10,610 nt of DNA from an uncultured Alcaligenaceae bacterium (GTDB lineage Bacteria; Planctomycetota; Planctomycetia; Gemmatales; Gemmataceae): assembly GCA_964588185.1 (NCBI GenBank), contig CAZPPD010000123.1:1-10610 (forward strand). The letters are read 5' to 3'. A model generated the notes under the pieces. The model worked only from the letters and a program-made list of their open reading frames with translations. It did no database searches and was not told where the DNA came from. Shown piece after piece: positions 1 to 10,084 of this stretch. Within the stretch, counting starts at the first letter, position 1; every line of letters starts with the position of its first letter. A program made the position numbers and the translations under genes.

Positions 1-567
1 ATAAAAAGTGGTTGTATTGCTGTCAAACGTCCAGTAGGGAATATATATTCCTTGCAACTTGGTGTTCTCGGCACGGGCATATTTCTTGAGTCCCGACGGA
101 GCGAACCACAGTCCCTTTAACCATTCCCGGAAAGCTTGGAAGGCCCTATCCCTGGGAATCAAAAACGGCAGCAGACTCTTGGGTTGAATCCGCACCTCGT
201 CTCGAGGCTCATCCACCAAGGCACTTCCGCAAAATGGGCATTCACTTGCTGTCACATGGGAATCCACTGTAGTTTCTGCCGCACAAGATTTGCACTTCAT
301 TACCTTCGGTTCAACTTTGGGCTCTTTTTCCGCCAGTTCTCCCAGATAACTTCGGTAATCCAGTTCTTTAATATCTTTTTCGGACTGAGGGATAGGGTTG
401 TTATGGCCACAGTAAGGGCAAGTGATGGATTGCACCGCCGGGTCGAAAACCATTTTCGCCCCGCATTGGTGACAGGGAAATTGCTTCTGGCTGGGAGGAG
501 GTGCATGGAAAGGTTCGATCGGTTCCACAGCAGGGGGAAGTTCCGGAGGCATCCCGTTTGGATCCAT
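1..567 (-). CDS. Double zinc-ribbon protein (YdjG-like), N-terminal 189 aa only; C-terminus lies beyond window start
   Basis: I translated the minus strand from ATG at 567..565. It reads MDPNGMPPELPPAVEPIEPFHAPPPSQKQFPCHQCGAKMVFDPAVQSITCPYCGHNNPIPQSEKDIKELDYRSYLGELAEKEPKVEPKVMKCKSCAAETTVDSHVTASECPFCGSALVDEPRDEVRIQPKSLLPFLIPRDRAFQAFREWLKGLWFAPSGLKKYARAENTKLQGIYIPYWTFDSNTTTFY... with no stop through position 1. There are two CxxC-(17)-CxxC zinc-ribbon motifs. A GAGGA Shine-Dalgarno-like motif sits about 10 nt upstream. The gene is missing from the ORF track because it has no stop in the window. The plus-strand ORF 136..591 and the minus ORF 300..584 are frame shadows of this gene. Confidence 0.6.
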   Translation of the reverse strand, partial: MDPNGMPPELPPAVEPIEPFHAPPPSQKQFPCHQCGAKMVFDPAVQSITCPYCGHNNPIPQSEKDIKELDYRSYLGELAEKEPKVEPKVMKCKSCAAETTVDSHVTASECPFCGSALVDEPRDEVRIQPKSLLPFLIPRDRAFQAFREWLKGLWFAPSGLKKYARAENTKLQGIYIPYWTFDSNTTTFY

Positions 568-666: not shown

Positions 667-1785
667 CTATCCCTGAGGAGGAACCGGAGGGGGAGTTGGC
701 GGCGCGGGGGGAAAGATTCCCGCCAGTTCGGGGACTTGTCCGGCTGCCGTCCATTGCACCATACCCTGCCTCCATACCAGGGAGTCCGCTTTAAGTTGTC
801 CGGCTGCAGCTTGTTGCCGAAGCATATCAACCGGATAGGGACCGGTTTGTTTTCCATTGACCACAACGAAGAATGACACCGCCTGGGGAATCGGCGGCGG
901 AGCTTGGGGGCTTGACTGCTGTTGCGGTTGGAAAGCATTTCCCATTTGATTGGCCAATCCAAACCCCATGCCCATGCCCATTCCCCCGGCAGCTAAACCT
1001 CCCGCTCCAGGATTTTTAGCGACATCTGGAATAGCATTGGCCGCCTGATACCGAGTGAAGGTGTTCATGTCACCGATAATTCCCATGGAAGACCTGGTGT
1101 CCAGAGCTTTTTCCACTTCCGGGGGCAACGAAATGTTTTCGACCAGCAGCTTGGTCAGCTCTATGCCGTAGCCGGAAAATTCGGGAGCAATCTGTTTGGT
1201 AACAAACTCGCTGATCTCGTTGTAGTTGCTGGCCAAATCCAATACGGGAATCTTGCTCTCGCCGAGAGCATCGGCAAAACGGGTAACCACCAAATTGCGA
1301 AGTTGGTCCGTTATCTCGTCGGTGGTGAAATGGCTGTCGGTGCCGACTATTTCCTTGACAAACTTGCCGGCATCTTCGACCCGGACGGCGTAGGTCCCAA
1401 AGGCGCGCAAACGAACCGGGCCAAACTCCGGATCCCGCAGCATAAGGGGATTCTTGGTGCCCCATTTCAGGTCGGTGAAATGCCGCATGGAAACGAAGTA
1501 AACGTCGACTTTGAAAGGGCTATTGAATCCATATTTCCATCCATTCAAAGTGGACAAGATCGGCATGTTACTCGTTTCCAACGTGTACATACCCGGCGAG
1601 AAGACATCGGCCAGTTGTCCTTCGTTTATGAAGACCGCCTTTTGGGATTCGCGGACAGTCAGTTTGGCTCCATATTTTATCTCGTTTTGAAAACGCTCAA
1701 ACTTCCAAACCATGGTGTCTGGGGAGTCGTCTGTCCACTCGATAATATCGATGAACTCGCCGCCAAGCTTATCCCAAAATCCCAT
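667..1785 (-). CDS. SPFH/Band-7 family protein (Band_7_1, YdjI-like) with a Gly/Met- and Gln/Pro-rich linker and a C-terminal DUF4339 (GYF-like) domain
   Basis: The track ORF is 667..1863 and starts on TTG. I prefer the internal ATG at 1785, which has an AAGGA Shine-Dalgarno motif 8 nt upstream. That start gives MGFWDKLGGEFIDIIEWTDDSPDTMVWKFERFQNEIKYGAKLTVRESQ..., the typical N-terminus of Band_7_1 / virion-core-protein-like SPFH proteins. The C-terminus NGKQTGPYPVDMLRQQAAAGQLKADSLVWRQGMVQWTAAGQVPEL matches the DUF4339 consensus (G-P..........G.....DTLVW..GM..W..A..V.EL). Stop is TAG at 667-669. Confidence 0.78.
   Translation of the reverse strand: MGFWDKLGGEFIDIIEWTDDSPDTMVWKFERFQNEIKYGAKLTVRESQKAVFINEGQLADVFSPGMYTLETSNMPILSTLNGWKYGFNSPFKVDVYFVSMRHFTDLKWGTKNPLMLRDPEFGPVRLRAFGTYAVRVEDAGKFVKEIVGTDSHFTTDEITDQLRNLVVTRFADALGESKIPVLDLASNYNEISEFVTKQIAPEFSGYGIELTKLLVENISLPPEVEKALDTRSSMGIIGDMNTFTRYQAANAIPDVAKNPGAGGLAAGGMGMGMGFGLANQMGNAFQPQQQSSPQAPPPIPQAVSFFVVVNGKQTGPYPVDMLRQQAAAGQLKADSLVWRQGMVQWTAAGQVPELAGIFPPAPPTPPPVPPQG
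721..879 (-). other. DUF4339/GYF-like small domain at the C-terminus of the SPFH protein
   Basis: Track residues about 329-381: FFVVVNGKQTGPYPVDMLRQQAAAGQLKADSLVWRQGMVQWTAAGQVPEL. It is preceded by a GAGGLAAGGMGMGMGFG / QPQQQSSPQAPPPIPQ low-complexity linker and followed by a PPAPPTPPPVPP tail. Confidence 0.6.
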
Positions 1786-1901
1786 CTGAGATTTCCTTTC
1801 GTTGACAAAATATCTGATAGGCTCACTTGGGGCCAGTTTAGCCCATGGAGCCACATATTTCAAAAAAGGTTTCCCAATCTGCTTACTGAGTTAATTCGCG
1901 G

Positions 1902-1945: not shown

Positions 1946-2854
1946 TTATTCCTTCCCCCGCCGCTTTACCAAAGTAACTTCATTTCCTTGATCATTAAAG
2001 GAAACCTCATCCAAAAAAGTCCGCATCAACATGATACCTCTGCCGAAAGGCCTGAGCAGATTCTCTGGGTCCGTGGGATCGGGAAGGGTTGAAACATCAA
2101 ACCCCGGCCCTTCGTCGCGGATAATAAACTCTGCCTCAGAGGGAGTGAAGGTGGCCGTGACTTTGACCCGCCGGTCACAGAAAGGAGGTTTTTTGACGCG
2201 TTCCTTCCCTAAACGCCGGTAGGCGTTGTCTTCGGATTCCCGGAGTCGCGAATCCAACTCCAGGTTGCCGTGATCAATGGCGTTAGCGATCGCTTCCGTT
2301 AAGGCGGTCGTTAATTGCAGTAGAGATCCTTGACCACAGAAATTCAAGCGGTTTAAGCCGTCCCGAAGATAGCTGATTAATGCTTGAGATCCCCCCGGTT
2401 CATACCCCAAAATGAATCGCGACTTACTTTCCACGAGAAACTCTCGGACTTGGTCCCGCTGTTGGGCAGCTTCGAGTGCAGCTTGGACTGTCTGGAGTGC
2501 TTCCCCAAGGTCCTGTTTGAGATTCTTCTTGGGAACATAGCTGGCAGCTCCCGCTTGCAACGCTTCCACTGCTACTTCTTCACTTCCGAAAGCCGTCATC
2601 AAAATTACCGGCATCTCCGGATAGTCGCGGCGAAGCTGATGGACCAATTCCAGCCCGTCCATTTCCGGCATCTTCAAATCCGTTAAAACGACCTCAGGAC
2701 ACTCGTTTTCAATCTTTTCAAGTGCTTCCTGACCATTGGATGCGAGGGCAAAATCCAGTCCTTCCTGTCGAACACAGGCACCGGCAATCTGCTGATCTAA
2801 GACGGAATCATCGACTATAAGAACTTTTGTCATAAGTTTGACCTTTTCTGACAT
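1946..2854 (-). CDS. Response regulator: N-terminal receiver (REC) domain fused to a C-terminal RsbW/SpoIIAB-like GHKL serine-kinase (HATPase_c_2) domain
   Basis: The REC motifs are present: KVLIVDDSVLD acidic pocket, VLTDLKMPEMDG phospho-acceptor Asp (track residue 59), ILMTA, and YVPKK. The C-terminal GHKL boxes are present: N-box TEAIANAIDHG, G1 IRDEGPGFD, G2 GRGIMLMRTF. Start is ATG at 2854 with no obvious Shine-Dalgarno motif. An alternative start is ATG at 2833 (MTKVLIVDD), which has AAAGG 9 nt upstream. Confidence 0.82.
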   Translation of the reverse strand: MSEKVKLMTKVLIVDDSVLDQQIAGACVRQEGLDFALASNGQEALEKIENECPEVVLTDLKMPEMDGLELVHQLRRDYPEMPVILMTAFGSEEVAVEALQAGAASYVPKKNLKQDLGEALQTVQAALEAAQQRDQVREFLVESKSRFILGYEPGGSQALISYLRDGLNRLNFCGQGSLLQLTTALTEAIANAIDHGNLELDSRLRESEDNAYRRLGKERVKKPPFCDRRVKVTATFTPSEAEFIIRDEGPGFDVSTLPDPTDPENLLRPFGRGIMLMRTFLDEVSFNDQGNEVTLVKRRGKE

Positions 2855-3000: not shown

Positions 3001-6000
3001 CTAGGGATCAGATCCCAAAGCCAAATTCATTGCTTGATGAAGAAGCTTGATTTCATTGTCCAGCTCGGGCAAGATCATTTCCGCCTCGGAGAAGTCGGCA
3101 TCTCTGCCGAATTGTTCCAGTTTCCGAGCGGTGGCAACTAATCCTTTCGCATCGAAAACATCAGCCGCACCCTTTATGGTGTGAGCTCCTCGTTGAACTT
3201 TTTTGGCGTCCTTTTCTGCTAATCCGGCCCAAATCTCATCAAGCTGTTTCTTACATTCCTGCATTAGGGTCGGAACCAATTGTTTCACCGCCTCCATACC
3301 TCCAGGAACCCTTTGCAATGCTGCCTCAAAACTAAATCTGACCTTTGGCAACTCGGCCTCGGGCTGGGAATAGTCTGTTGCACTCGTGTTAGAAACCTCA
3401 GCTTTGATGCCATCTTCGGCGGTATCATCTTTGAATTTGCCACCGAATTGGCCCAGGGTGGCAAACAACTCCTCCTTGTCAAATGGCTTGGCCACATACC
3501 CGTCCATTCCTTTCTGCAAACAATGCTCCCGGTCACCTTTCATGGCGTTGGCAGTCATGGCAATGATGGGAATGTGGTCTCCTGTTTGTTTTTCCCGTTT
3601 CCGGATGGCGGCAGTCGTTTCAAAACCATCCATTTCCGGCATTTGCACGTCCATGAGAATCAGGTCGAATGAATCTCTTTCCAAAGCGATTAATGCCTCC
3701 TTACCATCTTCCACTACAGTCACCTGATGGCCCCGCATTTTCAATATACCTGAAGCCACCTGCTGGTTGACGATGCCATCTTCGGCGAGCAAAATCTTGA
3801 GCGGCTGATCTGAGGTCTGCTTGTCAATTTCGGGCTGGCTGCTGGTTGTTAAACGATTCTGTTCTTTTCCGGAAATACTCAACAGCACATTCAGCAATTC
3901 GGATTGGACCACCGGTTTGGTAAGGCAACGAATAATGCCGAGCTTTTTGCAATGTTCGGCGTGACCTGCCAGGGGGGCTGAGGAGACAAGAACGATAGGG
4001 GTATGGCACATTTTAGGATCTGATCGAACGCGTTCTGTAAAACCAAATCCATCCATTCCCGGCATCATGTGATCCAACAGAATCAAATGGAATGCGTTTT
4101 CACCTTCAATAGCTTTGGCCAACTCCTCCAAACCGCTAACAGGATTGTCCGCGGAAACGGAAAGAATGTGCCAGCTTCTCAGCATCTCCTCGAAGATGCG
4201 CCGGTTGGTGTGGTTGTCGTCGACAATCAGGACCCGCATTCCGGATAACGAAGAGGTATCTGCTCGTTCTTTTTTTCTGTCGTCTGAGAGTACGCCAAAC
4301 TCAGCCGTAAAGTGAAAGGTGGTTCCTTTATCGACTTCGCTTTCGACCCAAATCCGGCCGTTCATCATATGCACCAATTGAGAAGAGATGGCCAGACCTA
4401 ATCCCGTACCTCCGAAACGGCGCGTCGTCGAGGCGTCTGCCTGACCAAAAGCCTCGAAGATCTTTTGTTGTTTGTCGCGGGGAATTCCGATGCCGGTATC
4501 TCTCACGGAGAAATGCAACCGCATTCTATTCCGGTCCAGGGATTCGCGGCAAACATTGATTTCCACCTCGCCTTCGTGGGTAAACTTGATAGCGTTTCCC
4601 ACCAAGTTCACAATTATTTGCCGCAACCTCCCGGGATCACCCAGCAGCGAATCGGGGAGCTCGGGATCGATCCGGCAAGCCATTTCCAGATTCTTTTCCG
4701 CGGCTCGAATCGACAATGTCTGGCCGGTTCTACCCACACAATCGCGAAGGCTGAACTCGATCTCTTCCATTTCCAGTTTACCCGCTTCGATTTTCGACAG
4801 GTCGAGGATGTCATTCAGAAGCTGCAACAAGGAATCTGCCGACTGCTGAATCATCTGCAGATAATCGGATTGCTCACTGGATAGATCAGTGTGAGCCAGC
4901 AATTGGGCCATGCCGATGATGCCGTTCATCGGAGTGCGAATTTCGTGACTCATATTGGCCAAGAAATCACTCTTCGTGCGATTGGCCGACTCGGCAGCTT
5001 CTTTGGCACGCAGAACTTCTCGCTGAGCTTCAACCAACTGTTGGTTGCGCTCTTGCAACTCCCGGGTCCGTTCTGCGACCCGGCCCTCCAAATTGGCATA
5101 GGTGGTTCGCAGCTCTTTAGTCATCTGATTAAATGCCGCCGCCAAGGTGCCAACTTCGTCGTCGCTATTTTCCGGAACGTGGACCTGCAACTGTCCACCA
5201 GCAACGGTTGTTGCCGCTTCGGCCAACTGCCGGATAGGGCTCATCATCCGCCGTACCAGGAAGTACGAAGCGACCAACCCGACAGTAAGGAAACCTGCCT
5301 GGAGAAAAAACATCGTGTTTTGCAGGTGAACTACGGGAGCATAGGCTTCGGCAACATCCATCTTTGCCACCAACCCCCATTTCCGGTATTCAGGTGGATG
5401 ATATTCAACCGGCAGGTAGCGAATGAGGACTTCTTCCCCCATAAAATCGCCGATGTCAAATCCGTCTTTTCCCTGGATGGCCTTTTCGAGGTGGGAAACA
5501 TCTCCAGCAACGAAATCACCCGCCCGGGTAGGGAGCAGAAACTTCACTCCGCCTTTGGCATAAGGGGTGCCGACTATTACCTCTCCTGTTTTTCCCAAGC
5601 CGGTCCGGTCCGAGAGCAGGTCCACTAACGGTTTCATATCCGCAAGCACCATCACCACGCCTAGGGGATTGCCTTCCGCAGAAATTGCCGGAGCCTCCAG
5701 ATAAGCCTGGTAACCGTCCTCAAAGGCTTCCGGAATGCCGAGATGCTCCCGCTTCCTATCTGGATCTACTGCAAATTTCTGTCCAATGTATTCGGGATTG
5801 GTTGCGGCGATGACTTGGTTGTTGAGATCCACAAACCAGATATCCAAAAAACCCTGCGTGCTCTTTTTGGCATCGTTTAAGATGCGTTGTGTCCTTTCCA
5901 AAAAATCCTGTTTGGGAATCTTTCCCATCTTGCGGAGTTCGATCAATTCGCGAAAGCGAGTCCTACTTGCGACCAAGGCAACTCGCTCATGCTCCTGGCG

Positions 6001-6243
6001 AACGAAGGTGAGTAGCCGTGCTTTTCGTTCCATGGCTACTGAGTCGAGGTGATGATTGACTCGCTCCCGCAGGGCATTGCGGGCAAAATAGAAACCGACC
6101 CAACTCAGGGCTTGGGTGATAACCAAGATCACTATGGCTACAAACAACGCTTGTTTGGTAACCAGAGACCTATACCAGGGAGTTTGACCTACCGTAAATT
6201 TGGAGTCATTTGTGGAGGTTGAGGATTGCTCGCGTTGAGTCAT
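3001..6243 (-). CDS. Hybrid sensor histidine kinase: TM1, periplasmic Cache-like sensor (~255 aa), TM2, HAMP, coiled coil, HisKA, HATPase_c, REC, REC, HPt
   Basis: The protein is 1080 aa. TM1 is [23 protein letters not shown] and TM2 is [20 protein letters not shown]. The H-box is [21 protein letters not shown] (His at residue 433). HATPase_c motifs are present: [18 protein letters not shown], and [13 protein letters not shown]1 runs [10 protein letters not shown]...[11 protein letters not shown]...LTKP and REC2 runs KILLAEDG...[13 protein letters not shown]...AMTANA...AKP. The HPt motif is [17 protein letters not shown]. Start is ATG at 6243 with a GGAGGGG Shine-Dalgarno motif 6 nt upstream. 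Stop is TAG at 3001-3003. Confidence 0.92.
3019..3321 (-). other. C-terminal HPt (histidine phosphotransfer) domain of the hybrid kinase
   Basis: Residues about 975-1075 contain the canonical HxxKG motif ([12 protein letters not shown]). It follows two receiver domains, the arrangement of ArcB/BarA/GacS-type unorthodox kinases. Confidence 0.75.
5314..6081 (-). other. Periplasmic sensor domain of the hybrid kinase (between the two TM helices), Cache-like, ligand unknown
   Basis: Residues about 55-310 lie between the two hydrophobic helices. They have mixed alpha/beta character (…[26 protein letters not shown]…[17 protein letters not shown]…[19 protein letters not shown]…) typical of Cache/PDC-type extracytoplasmic sensors. 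Confidence 0.5.
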
Positions 6244-6403: not shown

Positions 6404-8947
6404 TCACTTTTTAGGGTCAGGATCTTTTTTTAACATGGGTTCCGCTTTGCTATCCGGCTGGACTACCGGACCCCACTCATCCAAATTCATTTCTTTGGGA
6501 GCAGGTCCTTTGATGGTACACATTGCCTGGAAGATTTCGTCCGGAATATCAGCCTTGAGGAAACGGACAGATCCATCGGCCATGATTACATACGCTCCTT
6601 TCTTGCCGCCATAGTCTCCGACAAAGGGCTTAATGCTATCCTTCTCGGGAACTCCGCGAACCGTGGCCCCGCCGCCGGCAATCCAAGGAGTCATTCCCAC
6701 CGGATTATCCTGGGGAACTTGAATCATGAAAGCTGTGTTGGCAAGACCCCGGCCTTTGCTGATTTCTTCCAGGCTTACCGGCCGGTCGTAACCAAAGATC
6801 CCTCGCTTGCCTACGGCAGCCGGGTCGTCCAAGCGAAAATCTGCAGCATTGAGACCAACGCCGGCAATGCCGACAAAATGAGTCGCCGCAACATCGGTCG
6901 GCAATCCCGGATAGGATACCCGGCGTGAACTGCTGGGATACCTTGGATCCAGAAACTGCGGAACAATGGTCCGAGCAACCAGCCAATTTTCCTGATCCCG
7001 CCAGGATTTCTTGAAATTAATGCGTTGGTACAAGGTCCGCTGGTCCAGGAAAGGCAATAAGCTTGCCATCCAACTTACCCGATGAATCGGTTCCTTGGCG
7101 AAACGAGAGCCCGCCCCGATGCGCGGAAACGCGGCCTGTGGGAAATGTTTTTCCTCTAACGCCACCGTCCGATTAAACGGCAGTCGTTTGGTGCCAAGAT
7201 CTACCACAGCTTTACCAAGCTGGTGCCGGTGATTTTCCTTGGCGGCAATGGCGAGTTGATTGCGAACGTTGGCGATTAGCAATCTTGTCGCCCGAAGTAA
7301 ATCGCCGTCGCGGTTTTCGTCCAGAATTAAATCAAATGTAAAGGTGACGGTGTTCTCTTGTTGGTCCACTTTAATGCGGGATTTTTTGGGATCGTTGTCG
7401 TCAACCGGATTGGTCTCGGGGAATCCTTCTCCCCCTATCCTGCCGCCGGGAAGAAATGGTGCATTCGGGTCGTTCGGATCCACTTTGGTCTTCTTTTCCG
7501 AAACCACCTCTACTTTGTGGTTAAATGCCTTGTCAAAAAACTCAGCTACATCCGGGGCAACTTCAACTTCCAGGTCTTCCTCGAGCACCCGGGCATTTTG
7601 GTTGGCAAGACCGCCGGAGCAAGCAATTTCGTTGACGTAACGGTATTTTCCCGGTTCCCGTTGGCGAAACGAGGTCCCTAAGATGTCGATGGTGGCAACA
7701 TTCTGTTTCAGGACGTTGGTAACATCCCAAATCCTTCGCAATTGAAATACCGCGTAATCTCCGGCGAAGGGATTGTTTACTTTCAGTCGTGCTTTATCCA
7801 AGTCGGTGGCGGTGCTAAATAGGATGTGGGTCGTTTCTTTCTTTCCGGTTTCCACCTCCTCGAGTTTATCCAGCATCTTTTTCAAGTCCGGATGGATAGT
7901 ACTGTAAAAGGTGGTGCGGGCATCAGGGGCAAGGCGTTTAAATTTGCCTTTGACCTCTAAGAACATGGCCATTGGTTTCTTGTGAGCCACAATCAAAGTT
8001 TGCCGATCATGTAGGCGCAGGAACAAGGGTTCCTTGGGTTGCCGCTGTTGTCCGTATTTCAGATTGGAACGAGCGGCCATGGAGAGTTGGGAAAACTGTT
8101 CCAGCCAGAGGTTATCCTCCGGGATTTGGAAATAGTTTTGGTCGTGAATCTTCTCCTTTACCTCAATCAATCCTAATGCCTTGGCTAACTTATCCTCCTT
8201 AAAAGCGACCGTTGAATGAATGGCATTAAACGCCCACATTGAGTCCTGCCCATACCATTCACCGTGGAGAATTTCGTCAATCGCTTTCAAGGAAAATCCC
8301 AAGCGTTCCCGGAATACATTGTCATCCAAACCGGGTGAGCGAAAGGCGGTTAAGCCCAAATCGCTGGACAGGATATCCTTGAGGTGCAGATGAGCGACGT
8401 GGTGGACGTCGTTTGGAAGTAAATTGGTAAAGGCCTCGAGGTCGGCCTTGCCGAGAACTCGTTCCACAATCTTTTGCTTGCCATTTTCTTGGCCATTGCC
8501 GTTGGTTTGCTTCGTGGTACCGTTGCCGTTGTTTTCCGTGTTATCATTCTGGCCGTAAAGGTTTGGGTTCGTTTTTGGTTTCTTTTTGTTTCCGCCGGAC
8601 ATCATAAAGAAAGCAGCGACGGCCAAAACCACCAAACCGACAGCGCCCAAGCCGATCCCCAGCACCATTTGATTGGACTTTTTGCCTTTTTTCTTCTTGC
8701 CTTTTTTCTTTTTCTTGCCGGAATCCTCATCCTCGAAATCATCCTCATCATCCGGAACCGGTTTTTTCCGTTTTTTGGATTTTGGGGACTCATCCTCGGG
8801 CTTACTATCCGCAGGGTCATCGACAACAAATCGAAACTTGCAGGTCGGGCATTCGACTTTTTTGCCGATCAGTTTGGGATTTTTGATGACGACGCCGGAT
8901 TCGCAACTGGGACAAGATATTTTGAAGCTGTGCCCGGGAATGGCCAT
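6404..8947 (-). CDS. Bitopic membrane protein: N-terminal MJ0042-type zinc ribbon, Lys/Asp/Glu-rich linker, single TM helix, Asn/Gly/Thr-rich linker, ~390-aa unrecognised domain, C-terminal DUF1559 (divergent H-X9-DG) domain
   Basis: The track ORF is 6404..8962 and starts on GTG. I prefer ATG at 8947, which has GGAG 9 nt upstream. The N-terminus MAIPGHSFKISCPSCESGVVIKNPKLIGKKVECPTCKFRFVV fits the MJ0042-family CxxC-(17)-CxxC ribbon. The linker is KKRKKPVPDDEDDFEDEDSGKKKKKGKKKKGKK. The TM helix is MVLGIGLGAVGLVVLAVAAFFMM. The C-terminal ~260 aa match DUF1559 landmarks: SWMASLLPFLDQRTLYQRINFKKSWRDQENW, then YPGLPTDVAATHFVGIAGVG, then GAYVIMADGSVRFLKADIPDEIFQAMCTIKG. In the H-X9-DG motif the conserved His is replaced by Gly, giving G-X9-DG. 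Stop is TGA at 6404-6406. Confidence 0.78.
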   Translation of the reverse strand: MAIPGHSFKISCPSCESGVVIKNPKLIGKKVECPTCKFRFVVDDPADSKPEDESPKSKKRKKPVPDDEDDFEDEDSGKKKKKGKKKKGKKSNQMVLGIGLGAVGLVVLAVAAFFMMSGGNKKKPKTNPNLYGQNDNTENNGNGTTKQTNGNGQENGKQKIVERVLGKADLEAFTNLLPNDVHHVAHLHLKDILSSDLGLTAFRSPGLDDNVFRERLGFSLKAIDEILHGEWYGQDSMWAFNAIHSTVAFKEDKLAKALGLIEVKEKIHDQNYFQIPEDNLWLEQFSQLSMAARSNLKYGQQRQPKEPLFLRLHDRQTLIVAHKKPMAMFLEVKGKFKRLAPDARTTFYSTIHPDLKKMLDKLEEVETGKKETTHILFSTATDLDKARLKVNNPFAGDYAVFQLRRIWDVTNVLKQNVATIDILGTSFRQREPGKYRYVNEIACSGGLANQNARVLEEDLEVEVAPDVAEFFDKAFNHKVEVVSEKKTKVDPNDPNAPFLPGGRIGGEGFPETNPVDDNDPKKSRIKVDQQENTVTFTFDLILDENRDGDLLRATRLLIANVRNQLAIAAKENHRHQLGKAVVDLGTKRLPFNRTVALEEKHFPQAAFPRIGAGSRFAKEPIHRVSWMASLLPFLDQRTLYQRINFKKSWRDQENWLVARTIVPQFLDPRYPSSSRRVSYPGLPTDVAATHFVGIAGVGLNAADFRLDDPAAVGKRGIFGYDRPVSLEEISKGRGLANTAFMIQVPQDNPVGMTPWIAGGGATVRGVPEKDSIKPFVGDYGGKKGAYVIMADGSVRFLKADIPDEIFQAMCTIKGPAPKEMNLDEWGPVVQPDSKAEPMLKKDPDPKK
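6506..7294 (-). other. DUF1559 / H-X9-DG-like domain (Planctomycete pseudopilin-associated domain) without the usual prepilin N-terminus
   Basis: Track residues about 557-819; motifs as given for the CDS. There is no prepilin-type (G/FTLxE) methylation motif anywhere in the protein. Confidence 0.7.
8672..8803 (-). repeat. Low-complexity coding tract encoding a poly-Lys / acidic linker; CT-rich on the plus strand with several T5-T6 homopolymer runs
   Basis: The plus strand reads ...ctttttgccttttttcttcttgccttttttctttttcttgccggaatcctcatcctcgaaatcatcctcatcatccggaaccggttttttccgttttttgg.... It encodes SKPEDESPKSKKRKKPVPDDEDDFEDEDSGKKKKKGKKKKGKKS. Confidence 0.7.
8819..8947 (-). other. MJ0042-family zinc-ribbon (CxxC…CxxC) domain, predicted cytoplasmic
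   Basis: SCPSCESG-(17)-ECPTCKFRF. The second metal-binding knuckle is followed by F-R-F-V-V, as in TIGR02098-type ribbons. Confidence 0.65.
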
Positions 8948-9316
8948 GTAATTACTCTCCACGGAAAAGAAGGGAATCGCAAATGAGAATGAATTATGAT
9001 CCTTATCTTAAACGGGGGAAATAAGATCTGCAACGGGTAGTAATTTTGATTGGAAAAGTAATCAGCGGGAATGAGAAACGGGTATGCAGGATTTCCGTGA
9101 GATGTTTCGCCCTTTCAGGGCTTCTGGGGTGGAAAATGCCATATCCAGGGCGGAGTATCGCGACTATCGCCGCTCCGCTCTGCCCAGGGTATCTGGCCTG
9201 TCTTGTTGTTGGCCCTACCGGGGCGATAAATTCCACAGGTTTAATTTGAACCAGAAGTTCACCCGGGAAATGTTGATATCACTTGGAATTGAAACTGAAA
9301 ATTGGAACTACTGAAT

Positions 9317-10084
9317 TTACAATTCCCATTTCCATTCAATCATCCCTTCCAACATTTCTTTGTGCGTTAAATTAAACTGCAAAGGCGTGACGGTAATAAA
9401 ACGATCCGCCAACGCGGTTACGTCGGTATCCGGGTGAGGTTCCGGGCATCCATAATCCGGGTTATTCCAGAAATAGACCCGGCCGCGGGGGTCAATGCGG
9501 CGGTCGTAGGATTCTTCGTGCGGAGCCACGTTTTGCGGAACCACTTGGATGCCTTCGAGGGGCCCCTTTTCAAAGCTAGGGATATTAACATTAAAAAGGG
9601 ATCCTTGTTCGGGGTTGTGAGACATGATTTGCCGAATGACTGTCATAGAAAGCTCGGCTGCTTTGGGAAAATCCAGGGGTTTGGGTTTCGAGTATTCCAA
9701 AGAAATGGCGATGCTGGTTCGCTGGTAGAATGCCCCCTCTACGGCAGCGGCCACGGTTCCCGAATAAAGCACATTTATCCCTGCATTGGACCCGGCGTTG
9801 ATTCCACTGACAACTAAATCCGGCGGTTCGGCTAACAACTCCATCAAAGCCAGCTTCACACAATCCGCCGGACGCCCTTCCACTGCCCAGCCCATGGGCT
9901 CTTGATGGTCATCCACGACTTCTTGAACCAGTAACGGGGTCAGCAACGTGATGGAATGGCCAACCCCGCTTTGTTCTCCCGCTGGGGCAACAACCGTCAC
10001 CTCCCCCAATTTTTTCAGTTCCTCGCGCAGAGCCCGCAAACCCGGGGCATAAACACCATCATCATTGGTTAGCAGTATTCTCAC
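9317..10084 (-). CDS. surE: 5'/3'-nucleotidase SurE (stationary-phase survival protein)
   Basis: The N-terminus (V/M)RILLTNDDGVYAPGLRALREEL... is the SurE signature, including the DDG metal-binding motif. The 255-aa length is typical. Start is GTG at 10082-10084 with an AAGGA Shine-Dalgarno motif 8 nt upstream. Stop is TAA at 9317-9319. Confidence 0.9.
   Translation of the reverse strand: MRILLTNDDGVYAPGLRALREELKKLGEVTVVAPAGEQSGVGHSITLLTPLLVQEVVDDHQEPMGWAVEGRPADCVKLALMELLAEPPDLVVSGINAGSNAGINVLYSGTVAAAVEGAFYQRTSIAISLEYSKPKPLDFPKAAELSMTVIRQIMSHNPEQGSLFNVNIPSFEKGPLEGIQVVPQNVAPHEESYDRRIDPRGRVYFWNNPDYGCPEPHPDTDVTALADRFITVTPLQFNLTHKEMLEGMIEWKWEL

Follow-up and report, generated by a model that had tools for sequence, protein, structure and literature searches.

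A DUF1559 pseudopilin head on a zinc-ribbon-anchored bitopic protein of a planctomycete family

DUF1559 proteins are among the largest paralogous families of Planctomycetes, and to our knowledge no function has been established for any of them. The canonical members combine N_methyl (PF07963), PF07596 and TIGR04294 and are GspG/PulG-like pseudopilins. Planctopirus limnophila carries 68 DUF1559 copies, two of which are essential (PMC10632474). The window (the whole 10,610-nt stretch of DNA analysed here) encodes a protein in which a DUF1559 domain stands behind a zinc ribbon and an internal membrane helix.

Reading frame, zinc ribbon and membrane anchor

The gene product is a bitopic inner-membrane protein of a conserved planctomycete family. 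Its parts follow one another in the order Cys4 zinc ribbon, Lys/acid-rich linker, transmembrane (TM) helix, Asn/Gly/Thr-rich spacer, central domain of ~380 aa and DUF1559 (Table 1), and an earlier note on this DNA, which had read it as a DUF1559 domain on a ribbon-anchored bitopic protein, is borne out by this layout and by the PF07596 match. The N-terminus that follows from the ATG at 8947, MAIPGHSFKISCPSC, agrees with the MAxxxSFKQxCPSC of the homologues in sequence comparison. If translation began instead with the GTG at 8962, the product would be five residues longer (6404..8962, minus strand, 852 aa), and inspection of the reading frame places an in-frame TAA 17 codons 5' of this GTG, so that an N-terminal extension with a prepilin leader is excluded.

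Table 1. Positions in the window of the DUF1559-protein gene, its parts and the adjoining kinase gene
Feature	Residues	Position	Strand	Basis or remark
Whole CDS, from ATG 8947	847 aa	6404..8947	(-)	stop codon 6404-6406; ORF list
Four-Cys zinc ribbon CPSC-X17-CPTC, predicted cytoplasmic	9-41	8825..8923	(-)	CxxC pairs conserved
Lys/Asp/Glu-rich charged linker with poly-Lys end, predicted cytoplasmic	45-93	8669..8815	(-)	read from sequence
Single transmembrane helix MVLGIGLGAVGLVVLAVAAFFMMS	94-117	8597..8668	(-)	Kyte-Doolittle
Asn/Gly/Thr/Lys-rich low-complexity spacer, predicted periplasmic	118-167	8447..8596	(-)	read from sequence
Central domain, TP0453-like alpha/beta/alpha sandwich (modelled), without Pfam family	168-543	7319..8446	(-)	
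Pseudopilin-derived module	544-822	6482..7318	(-)	hhalign; AF2 pLDDT 92.3
PF07596 (DUF1559/SBP_bac_10) match	600-741	6725..7150	(-)	Pfam HMM
Degenerate H-X9-DG: G781 KKGAYVIMA D791 G792 SVRFLK	781-798	6554..6607	(-)	TIGR04294; hhalign
Pro/Lys-rich C-terminal tail	823-847	6407..6481	(-)	pLDDT ~60 over last 20 residues
Hybrid histidine kinase HAMP-HisKA-HATPase-2xREC-Hpt		3001-6243	(-)	160 nt downstream of the DUF1559-protein gene

All four ribbon cysteines (CPSC, residues 12-15; CPTC, residues 33-36) are invariant among close homologues, and both CxxC pairs are kept in all full-length relatives. The profile matches are weaker: TIGR02098 scores 13 bits against a cutoff of 20.9, PF13717 (Zn_ribbon_4) 16.2 against 30.3 and PF13719 (Zn_ribbon_5) 10 against 29.3, and a LysW-type match is likewise sub-threshold. 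Among 18 homologues, TIGR02098 matches eight at E<=0.1 and LysW-type ribbons match 12. Because every ribbon HMM match lies below its cutoff, the designation 'MJ0042-type' is plausible, not established, for this predicted zinc binder; of the MJ0042-type ribbon predicted earlier, the two conserved CxxC pairs stand, whereas the expected TIGR02098 match stays sub-threshold. A zinc-binding anti-sigma factor (ZAS), defined by H-x3-C-x2-C and an adjoining ECF sigma gene, was also considered and rejected. The window protein reads H6-x5-C12-x2-C15, His6 is not conserved (the homologues read FKQxCPSC), and no sigma factor gene lies beside the gene in the window or at the homologue loci examined.

Residues 94-117 are the one segment of the protein that exceeds 1.6 on the Kyte-Doolittle scale, at a position shared by the relatives. 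The net charge is +9 over the 20 residues before the helix versus +3 on its C-terminal side, which favours an N-in orientation under the positive-inside rule. We infer that the ribbon and linker are cytoplasmic, that the chain crosses the membrane once and that the remainder is periplasmic, as the earlier reading of a charged linker and one N-in helix had it. The spacer that follows differs in length and composition between homologues.

Anchoring by ZnR, linker and TM helix is a modular arrangement already known from ZitP and GltJ, and related loci of the same genomes encode other ZnR-linker-TM proteins with unrelated ectodomains. ZitP of Caulobacter crescentus consists of a zinc_ribbon_5 (CXXC-X19-CXXC), a TM helix and a periplasmic DUF3426 domain, and this periplasmic domain controls pilus biogenesis (PMC5182063). 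The window protein resembles it in having an N-terminal, predicted cytoplasmic CXXC-Xn-CXXC ribbon, a linker, one TM helix and a putative periplasmic effector domain, but the ribbon spacing is 17 residues instead of 19, and a pilin-derived head forms part of a much larger periplasmic portion. The resemblance is one of layout only, and a Pfam search found no DUF3426 in the window protein or the first homologues. We know of no relationship of the window family to PopZ. GltJ of Myxococcus xanthus has the order ZnR, linker, GYF, TM and periplasmic domain, with the ZnR and linker acting as a cytosolic switch, and ZnR modules are reported to be common in planctomycetes (PMC11135422). An N-terminal ZnR, a flexible linker and a TM helix are common to GltJ, which connects the cytosol to the envelope (PMC11135422), and the window protein; the latter lacks GYF, however, and the ectodomains are unrelated. 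The NCBIfam GltJ model matches weakly, over the linker/TM region only (10.9 bits against a cutoff of 450).

The pseudopilin-derived module

PF07596 matches the window protein with 50.1 bits (cutoff 23.3, E=5.2e-13), a partial match over profile positions 31-171 of 268, and also matches 16 of the 18 first homologues. An hhalign comparison of the family profile with three canonical proteins containing N_methyl, DUF1559 and H-X9-DG extends the relationship (98.85%, E=4e-17), pairing canonical residues 21-297 with residues 548-822 of the window protein. The alignment starts inside the pilin alpha1, and thus about two-thirds of the pilin spine helix, its C-terminal portion, are kept; of the canonical N-terminus, no more than the leader, the GFTLIE motif and the initial hydrophobic turns is lacking. 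The module is made up of an amphipathic spine helix (residues 544-568), which matches canonical alpha1 from around residue 21 onward, another helix (574-586) and the globular DUF1559 head. Judged by these alignments, the ~280 C-terminal residues descend from a DUF1559 pseudopilin of which the head and about two-thirds of alpha1 were kept. Shared motifs include the DGSVRF at the end and SW..LLP..(E/G)Q..LY. The window family differs from the canonical proteins in a PWIAGGGxTxRG loop and in ~540 extra residues (ZnR, TM helix and central domain) before the head, and it no longer has a leader peptide, a G|FxxxE processing site or a hydrophobic alpha1N.

The loss of the prepilin N-terminus is seen in several ways. 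In a canonical comparator (locus L069), N_methyl covers residues 1-26, DUF1559 31-280 and H-X9-DG 255-275, with GspG-like similarity over 5-67, and as a positive control this protein scored 36.4 bits with N_methyl and 38.6 bits with TIGR04294. In the window protein, an HMM search gave no N_methyl (PF07963) or TIGR02532 match at E<=1, and a regular expression for the prepilin motif G[FM..][TS]LxE found it neither there nor in 162 relatives. With leader and alpha1N missing, a prepilin-peptidase substrate is ruled out; both this and the absence of a prepilin module had been proposed earlier, and the upstream stop removes the escape of a reannotated start.

The H-X9-DG signature is degenerate. TIGR04294 reaches 16.6 bits, under its cutoff of 19, over profile positions 8-22 only. 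Gly781 lies at position -10 from D791-G792 and is paired by hhalign with the canonical His; across 98 family sequences, 63 have Gly in this column and not one has His, which confirms the His to Gly exchange first read from the single sequence. The DG and the SVRF after it are retained despite the lost His.

These features bear on whether the protein could still be built into a filament or secreted, some protease freeing the head, or helix and head together, for a pseudopilus or for export. The retained alpha1C-like helix and the head share ancestry with canonical pseudopilins, and disordered linkers border the folded domains. However, type IV pilins require the hydrophobic alpha1N, Gly-1, Phe+1 and Glu+5 for processing and filament packing, and all of these are missing here. 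The hydrophobic alpha1N is what allows pilins to exit the membrane and pack in the filament core, and the equivalent helix of the window protein is amphipathic and packs against the central domain in the model. A filament subunit or secreted product released in this way is therefore very improbable.

The central domain, its family and the gene neighbourhood

The central domain starts with a near-invariant TNLLPND motif. Structural comparison of its model with the PDB indicates that it is folded as a TP0453-like alpha/beta sandwich. Identity to TP0453 (Treponema pallidum, PDB 3k8g) is 8%, with no detectable sequence homology, and searches of PDB sequences that used the head or either domain profile as query gave nothing meaningful and no match to TP0453. 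The central stretch of ~390 aa in which no motif had been recognised indeed matches no sequence family, and the predicted fold is now added to its description. TP0453 is a stand-alone lipoprotein, whereas its counterpart in the window is a domain within a bitopic protein. The weakly modelled stretches include residues ~278-307 and ~487-516, and the long P/G-rich inserts of homologues occur at two fixed sites, after FK(x)L near residue 340 and at ~487-516. A periplasmic domain of ~380 aa with this fold and no annotation merits a family model of its own.

The TP0453-like domain may itself be the working part, in envelope lipid or glycolipid handling or in a tether from inner to outer membrane. 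It would then bind or insert into lipid, with the head and the variable P/G-rich loops merely reaching or anchoring across the periplasm. Lipid binding or insertion has reportedly been proposed for TP0453. This reading seems unlikely, given the distance in sequence from TP0453 and the Pirellulales-type relatives, which keep ZnR, TM helix and DUF1559 but wholly lack the central domain. Such relatives indicate that the anchored head, and not the TP0453-like domain, is the core that the wider group has conserved.

An exhaustive HMMER search with the central-domain profile recovers 569 clusters at 50% identity (E<=1e-3), 274 of them at E<=1e-30. The full architecture of ZnR, TM helix, central domain and DUF1559 is present in 136 of the 162 proteins retrieved, and most of the others look truncated. 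Genome loci were located by a degenerate DNA pattern for PWIAGGGxTxRG; 65 matched, with one motif match each, and no two come from genomes of the same name. All belong to Planctomycetota, mostly to Gemmataceae, and cultured members include Gemmata algarum, Gemmata sp. IIL30 and Tuwongella immobilis. The family is apparently single-copy per genome, in contrast to the dozens of paralogues of canonical DUF1559 proteins. The closest relatives of the window protein are at most 45% identical to it, and a tblastn search of plasmids with the DUF1559 head gave no match. The architecture that the earlier note did not recognise is not an isolated case, the family being large and conserved, and its anchor is of a known type. 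The family is real and unstudied. Some homologues have an additional domain at the C-terminal tail, either TIGR03067-like or PsbP-like.

Among the relatives in databases are many fragments (200-500 aa), as might be expected of a mis-called or chimeric ORF or of a decaying pseudopilin gene. In the one fragment checked (locus L029, carrying P0179), however, the three domain matches fall on three overlapping ORFs, which identifies a frameshifted gene call, not a different gene. The window ORF is uninterrupted, and hundreds of clusters conserve it over its full length. An artefact or pseudogene is hardly credible and is refuted by this strong conservation.

The gene lies directly upstream of a hybrid sensor kinase gene on the same strand, as had been noted before, and a gene for a REC+HATPase_c_2 protein (a REC-RsbW-like kinase) comes next. 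The protein could accordingly be a periplasmic co-sensor or accessory of the hybrid kinase, in one signalling unit with the REC-RsbW-like kinase. However, gene content shows no kinase adjoining the homologous gene at any of six homologue loci, and ORF clustering over 70 related loci finds no neighbour family in common with the window and none in more than 10 loci. Adjacency that is not conserved offers no functional clue; it looks incidental, and a co-sensor is largely refuted and scarcely probable. Nor do the 70 loci contain a conserved neighbour that would suggest a connection with pilus or T2SS machinery.

A possible adaptor with a non-polymerisable pilin head

By analogy, the protein is tentatively read as a transmembrane adaptor of the ZitP/GltJ type that shows a non-polymerisable pilin head in the periplasm, a proposal that ranks first among the explanations but is somewhat less likely than not. 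The zinc ribbon and linker would bind a cytosolic organiser or switch protein. Beyond the TM helix, a disordered spacer would lead to the TP0453-like domain, the last helix of which would run on as a pilin-like spine bearing the DUF1559 head. That this spine forms a rigid link between the domains is something we infer, as the two domains were modelled separately. The head would be held in the periplasm with the N-in topology of an unassembled prepilin, and it cannot be cleaved, methylated or polymerised. The periplasmic ectodomain would bind partners, the likeliest being canonical DUF1559 pseudopilins or their assembly platform. Together with type IV pilins, the major pseudopilin of type II secretion (GspG/EpsG/PulG) is among the closest known systems. 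The protein might thus position, nucleate, cap or regulate a type-IV-filament-like structure without being part of the fibre. The lost His and the family-specific PWIAGGGxTxRG loop could also mean that the head has a role unrelated to filaments.

A more specific and rather doubtful version of the adaptor makes the protein a permanently anchored 'pseudo-subunit' at the base of a pseudopilus, where it would prime, terminate or fix assembly while the ZnR couples it to a cytoplasmic organiser. If true, this 'pseudo-subunit', as the sole conserved single-copy member among dozens of DUF1559 paralogues, would be the first genetic handle on the purpose of the DUF1559 expansion in Planctomycetes. The family shows that, at least once, a DUF1559 head was taken over for use away from polymerising pilins, on a zinc-ribbon anchor like that of ZitP and GltJ. 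The gene is conserved and apparently single-copy in Gemmataceae, with a simpler form in Pirellulales, and the cultured Gemmata and Tuwongella strains that carry it provide a tractable target for finding the binding partners of the head.

Gene model, anchor and domain models

The target protein joins a head of pilin origin to a ZitP/GltJ-type anchor and an unannotated TP0453-like central domain, and confidence in this architectural and evolutionary reading is very high. All elements described in the earlier note (reading frame, DUF1559, CPSC-X17-CPTC, transmembrane (TM) helix and a Gly at a conserved His) were recovered where it had placed them. Translation from the ATG at 8947 gives 847 residues, and the N-terminus (MAIPGHSFKISCPSC...) aligns with the MAxxxSFKQxCPSC start of all full-length homologues. 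With an in-frame TAA 17 codons 5' of the alternative GTG, a hidden prepilin leader would not fit. The ribbon had been called MJ0042-type; the cysteine motif is present, but all zinc-ribbon (ZnR) models fell under cutoff (TIGR02098, 13 vs 20.9 bits; PF13717, 16.2 vs 30.3) and the ribbon is not assignable to TIGR02098 at threshold. The one hydrophobic segment (residues 94-117) directly follows a poly-Lys tract. Its flanking net charge (+9 N-terminally, +3 C-terminally) favours an N-in protein; in the predicted topology, the ribbon and charged linker would be cytoplasmic and both folded domains periplasmic.

Features of the window and of two related loci
Feature	Position	Strand	Remarks
Target ORF	6404..8962	-	one long ORF
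CPSC-X17-CPTC	target residues 12-15 and 33-36	-	read from sequence
SurE (5'/3'-nucleotidase)	9317-10084	-	upstream of target, ~370 nt non-coding between
Hybrid histidine kinase, HAMP-HisKA-HATPase_c-2xREC-Hpt, 1080 aa	3001-6243	-	
REC+HATPase_c_2 (RsbW-like serine kinase) protein	1946-2854	-	146 nt downstream of hybrid kinase
SPFH/Band_7_1 (348 bits) + Pro-rich linker + C-terminal GYF_2 (69 bits)	667-1863	-	
Pirellulales-type relative	L043 1874-3638	+	ribbon(s)-TM-DUF1559, no central domain
Pirellulales-type relative	L044 6278-7601	+	ribbon(s)-TM-DUF1559, no central domain

The central region (168-565), modelled from an 18-sequence alignment, reached a pLDDT of 79.4 and a pTM of 0.82, with low-confidence stretches that include ~278-307 and ~487-516. 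Both models contain helix 544-568: it closes the central domain in one and opens the head in the other, so the two domains, modelled apart, may be joined by a continuous spine.

Pilin ancestry of the head

DUF1559 was expected from a profile search, and PF07596 (DUF1559/SBP_bac_10) is indeed the sole significant Pfam match (E=5.2e-13, 50.1 bits, cutoff 23.3), pairing residues 600-741 with profile positions 31-171 of 268; by the Pfam criterion, the protein belongs to PF07596. The predicted lack of a prepilin N-terminus was borne out, neither the Pfam N_methyl model nor TIGR02532 matching at E<=1. The His site of the H-X9-DG motif is Gly781, counted back from D791-G792, in agreement with the earlier reading, and hhalign pairs the canonical His with this same residue. 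TIGR04294 matches over profile positions 8-22 only (16.6 bits, cutoff 19). The target shows neither what defines a prepilin nor what defines TIGR04294. Among 98 family sequences, the His column holds Gly in 63 and His in none, and G784, M789, D791, G792 and R795 are near-invariant.

The canonical comparators were three canonical DUF1559 genes that chanced to fall in the fetched loci. The best, from locus L069, matches N_methyl (36.4 bits, 1-26), the full PF07596 profile (155.6 bits, 31-280) and TIGR04294 (38.6 bits), and its N-terminus also matches the GspG and ComGC models. In hhalign, the 98-sequence family profile scored 95.9% against this single protein and 98.85% (E=4e-17) against the three-sequence canonical alignment. 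Canonical 21-297 pairs with target 548-822, and the alignment therefore begins within alpha1, where the target reads GDLLRATRLLIANVRNQLAIAAKENHRHQLGKAVVDLGTK. Set against the canonical proteins, the missing part is exactly their leader, the G|FTLIE site for processing and methylation, and the hydrophobic turns that come first. Judged by sequence homology and not by fold, the head descends from pilins. It is no prepilin-peptidase substrate and has no hydrophobic alpha1N, which type IV pilins need for membrane extraction and filament packing. A prepilin motif occurs in none of 162 family proteins, and a role for this pilin descendant as a released subunit is highly improbable.

Family distribution and genomic neighbourhood

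A word-indexed search returned 17 relatives (26-45% identity), one of them from the isolate Tuwongella immobilis, with their parts in the same order as in the target. An exhaustive HMMER search with a profile limited to the central region, counted in clusters at the 50% identity level, gave 569 clusters at E<=1e-3, of which 467 also reach E<=1e-10 and 274 E<=1e-30. In these proteins, 800-1400 aa in length, 150-300 residues regularly precede the domain. When 162 proteins were scored with home-made HMMs for ribbon and head and a hydropathy scan, 136 had ribbon, TM, central domain and DUF1559, and the other 26 mostly look like truncated fragments. A scan for the loop PWIAGGGxTxRG, which is specific to the family, covered a single genome of each species and yielded 65 loci with one match each, every genome differently named. 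All 65 are Planctomycetota, mostly labelled Gemmataceae, Gemmata, Frigoriglobus or Gemmatales, and cultured sources include Gemmata algarum JC673, Gemmata sp. IIL30 and Gemmataceae CJuql4. Loci with the whole gene inside 8 kb have all three modules. The target is a conserved family member and no accident, and the chance of an artefact is very slight. Being apparently single-copy, the gene gives a way to approach the unexplained expansion of DUF1559.

A full family gene of Gemmataceae type also occurs in five metagenome-assembled genomes (L033, L027, L050, L056, L067) whose labels are Candidatus Kuenenia stuttgartiensis, Singulisphaera or Isosphaera, which may reflect mis-binning, mislabelling or a range wider than Gemmatales. 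Many short database entries of the family are suspected fragments. On the megabase contig L029, ribbon, central and head matches are spread over three ORFs that overlap; this accounts for P0179, a short 'protein' in the database, and suggests a frameshifted assembly. Similar splits are seen in L009, L011, L014, L031, L048, L055 and L068; the split gene of L029, and possibly those of the other loci, look like assembly indels, not real truncations.

Adjacency to a hybrid sensor kinase, stressed in the earlier note, holds in the window but is not kept in the related loci. When all ORFs of the window and 70 related loci were clustered, every neighbour family was limited to 10 loci or fewer, and the window shared none of them. 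The gene therefore appears to stand alone amid housekeeping genes and the kinase adjacency is without functional weight; a kinase co-sensor is barely credible. The hybrid kinase and the REC/HATPase_c_2 protein look like a phosphorelay feeding a partner-switching-type kinase. GYF domains are reported paired with ZnR modules in planctomycetes (PMC11135422); no link of the SPFH+GYF_2 protein to the target gene was found. Neighbours vary across six homologue loci: thrS (threonyl-tRNA synthetase) lies directly upstream in three (L002/L003, L006 and the contig of P0004) and two have genes for a TsaD-family protein and RNase H in the vicinity, a sub-clade synteny with housekeeping genes that is missing in the window.

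Comparison with known systems and architectural variants

The target is laid out like ZitP of Caulobacter crescentus and GltJ of Myxococcus xanthus, with a ribbon followed by a linker, a TM helix and a periplasmic effector. In ZitP, the ribbon binds PopZ; the periplasmic domain recruits CpaM, and this domain is needed for Cpa pilus biogenesis (PMC5182063). In GltJ, ribbon and linker act as a switch in the cytosol, and frequent ZnR modules are noted for planctomycetes (PMC11135422). Unlike ZitP, the target has no DUF3426, and membership of the ZitP family was rejected on that ground. The ribbon-linker-TM anchor is modular, because it bears unrelated ectodomains, beta-propeller-like or other, in further ORFs beside or near the family gene (L032, L036, L067, L068); in L067, one such ORF lies immediately upstream and overlaps it. 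Relatives are named only 'DUF1559 domain-containing protein' or 'hypothetical protein', and none of the four papers in the searchable literature that mention DUF1559 contains a description of the ribbon-TM-central-DUF1559 architecture, which would somewhat surprise pilus specialists.

Given the shared layout and the modular anchor, the favoured reading is that the target might be a transmembrane adaptor whose pilin head, unable to polymerise, would face partners in the periplasm, the likeliest being canonical DUF1559 pseudopilins or their platform. Such a function in filament systems is a tentative conjecture by analogy. The main alternative, in which the domain resembling Treponema pallidum TP0453 would be central to lipid handling or tethering in the envelope, is unlikely, and is weakened by relatives without that domain: L043, L044 and P0286 belong to the same PWIAGGG subfamily and have one or two ribbons and a TM helix, then a disordered linker of some length that leads to the DUF1559 head. 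These Pirellulales-type relatives suggest that the core with the anchored head came first and that the TP0453-like domain was inserted later, or was lost. In other homologues (P0002, P0004, P0007, P0010, P0174, P0184, P0258) the head is followed by an extra C-terminal domain, which JGI names as TIGR03067 family or which weakly matches PsbP; P0258 ends in a second 'MADGSVR' motif. Pro/Gly/Met-rich low-complexity inserts of up to a few hundred residues (P0002, P0008, P0010, P0016 and others) occupy two fixed sites of the central domain, near residue 340 behind an FK(x)L motif and at ~487-516 (window about 7400-7930). With short loops at both, the target's central domain is close to a minimal version.
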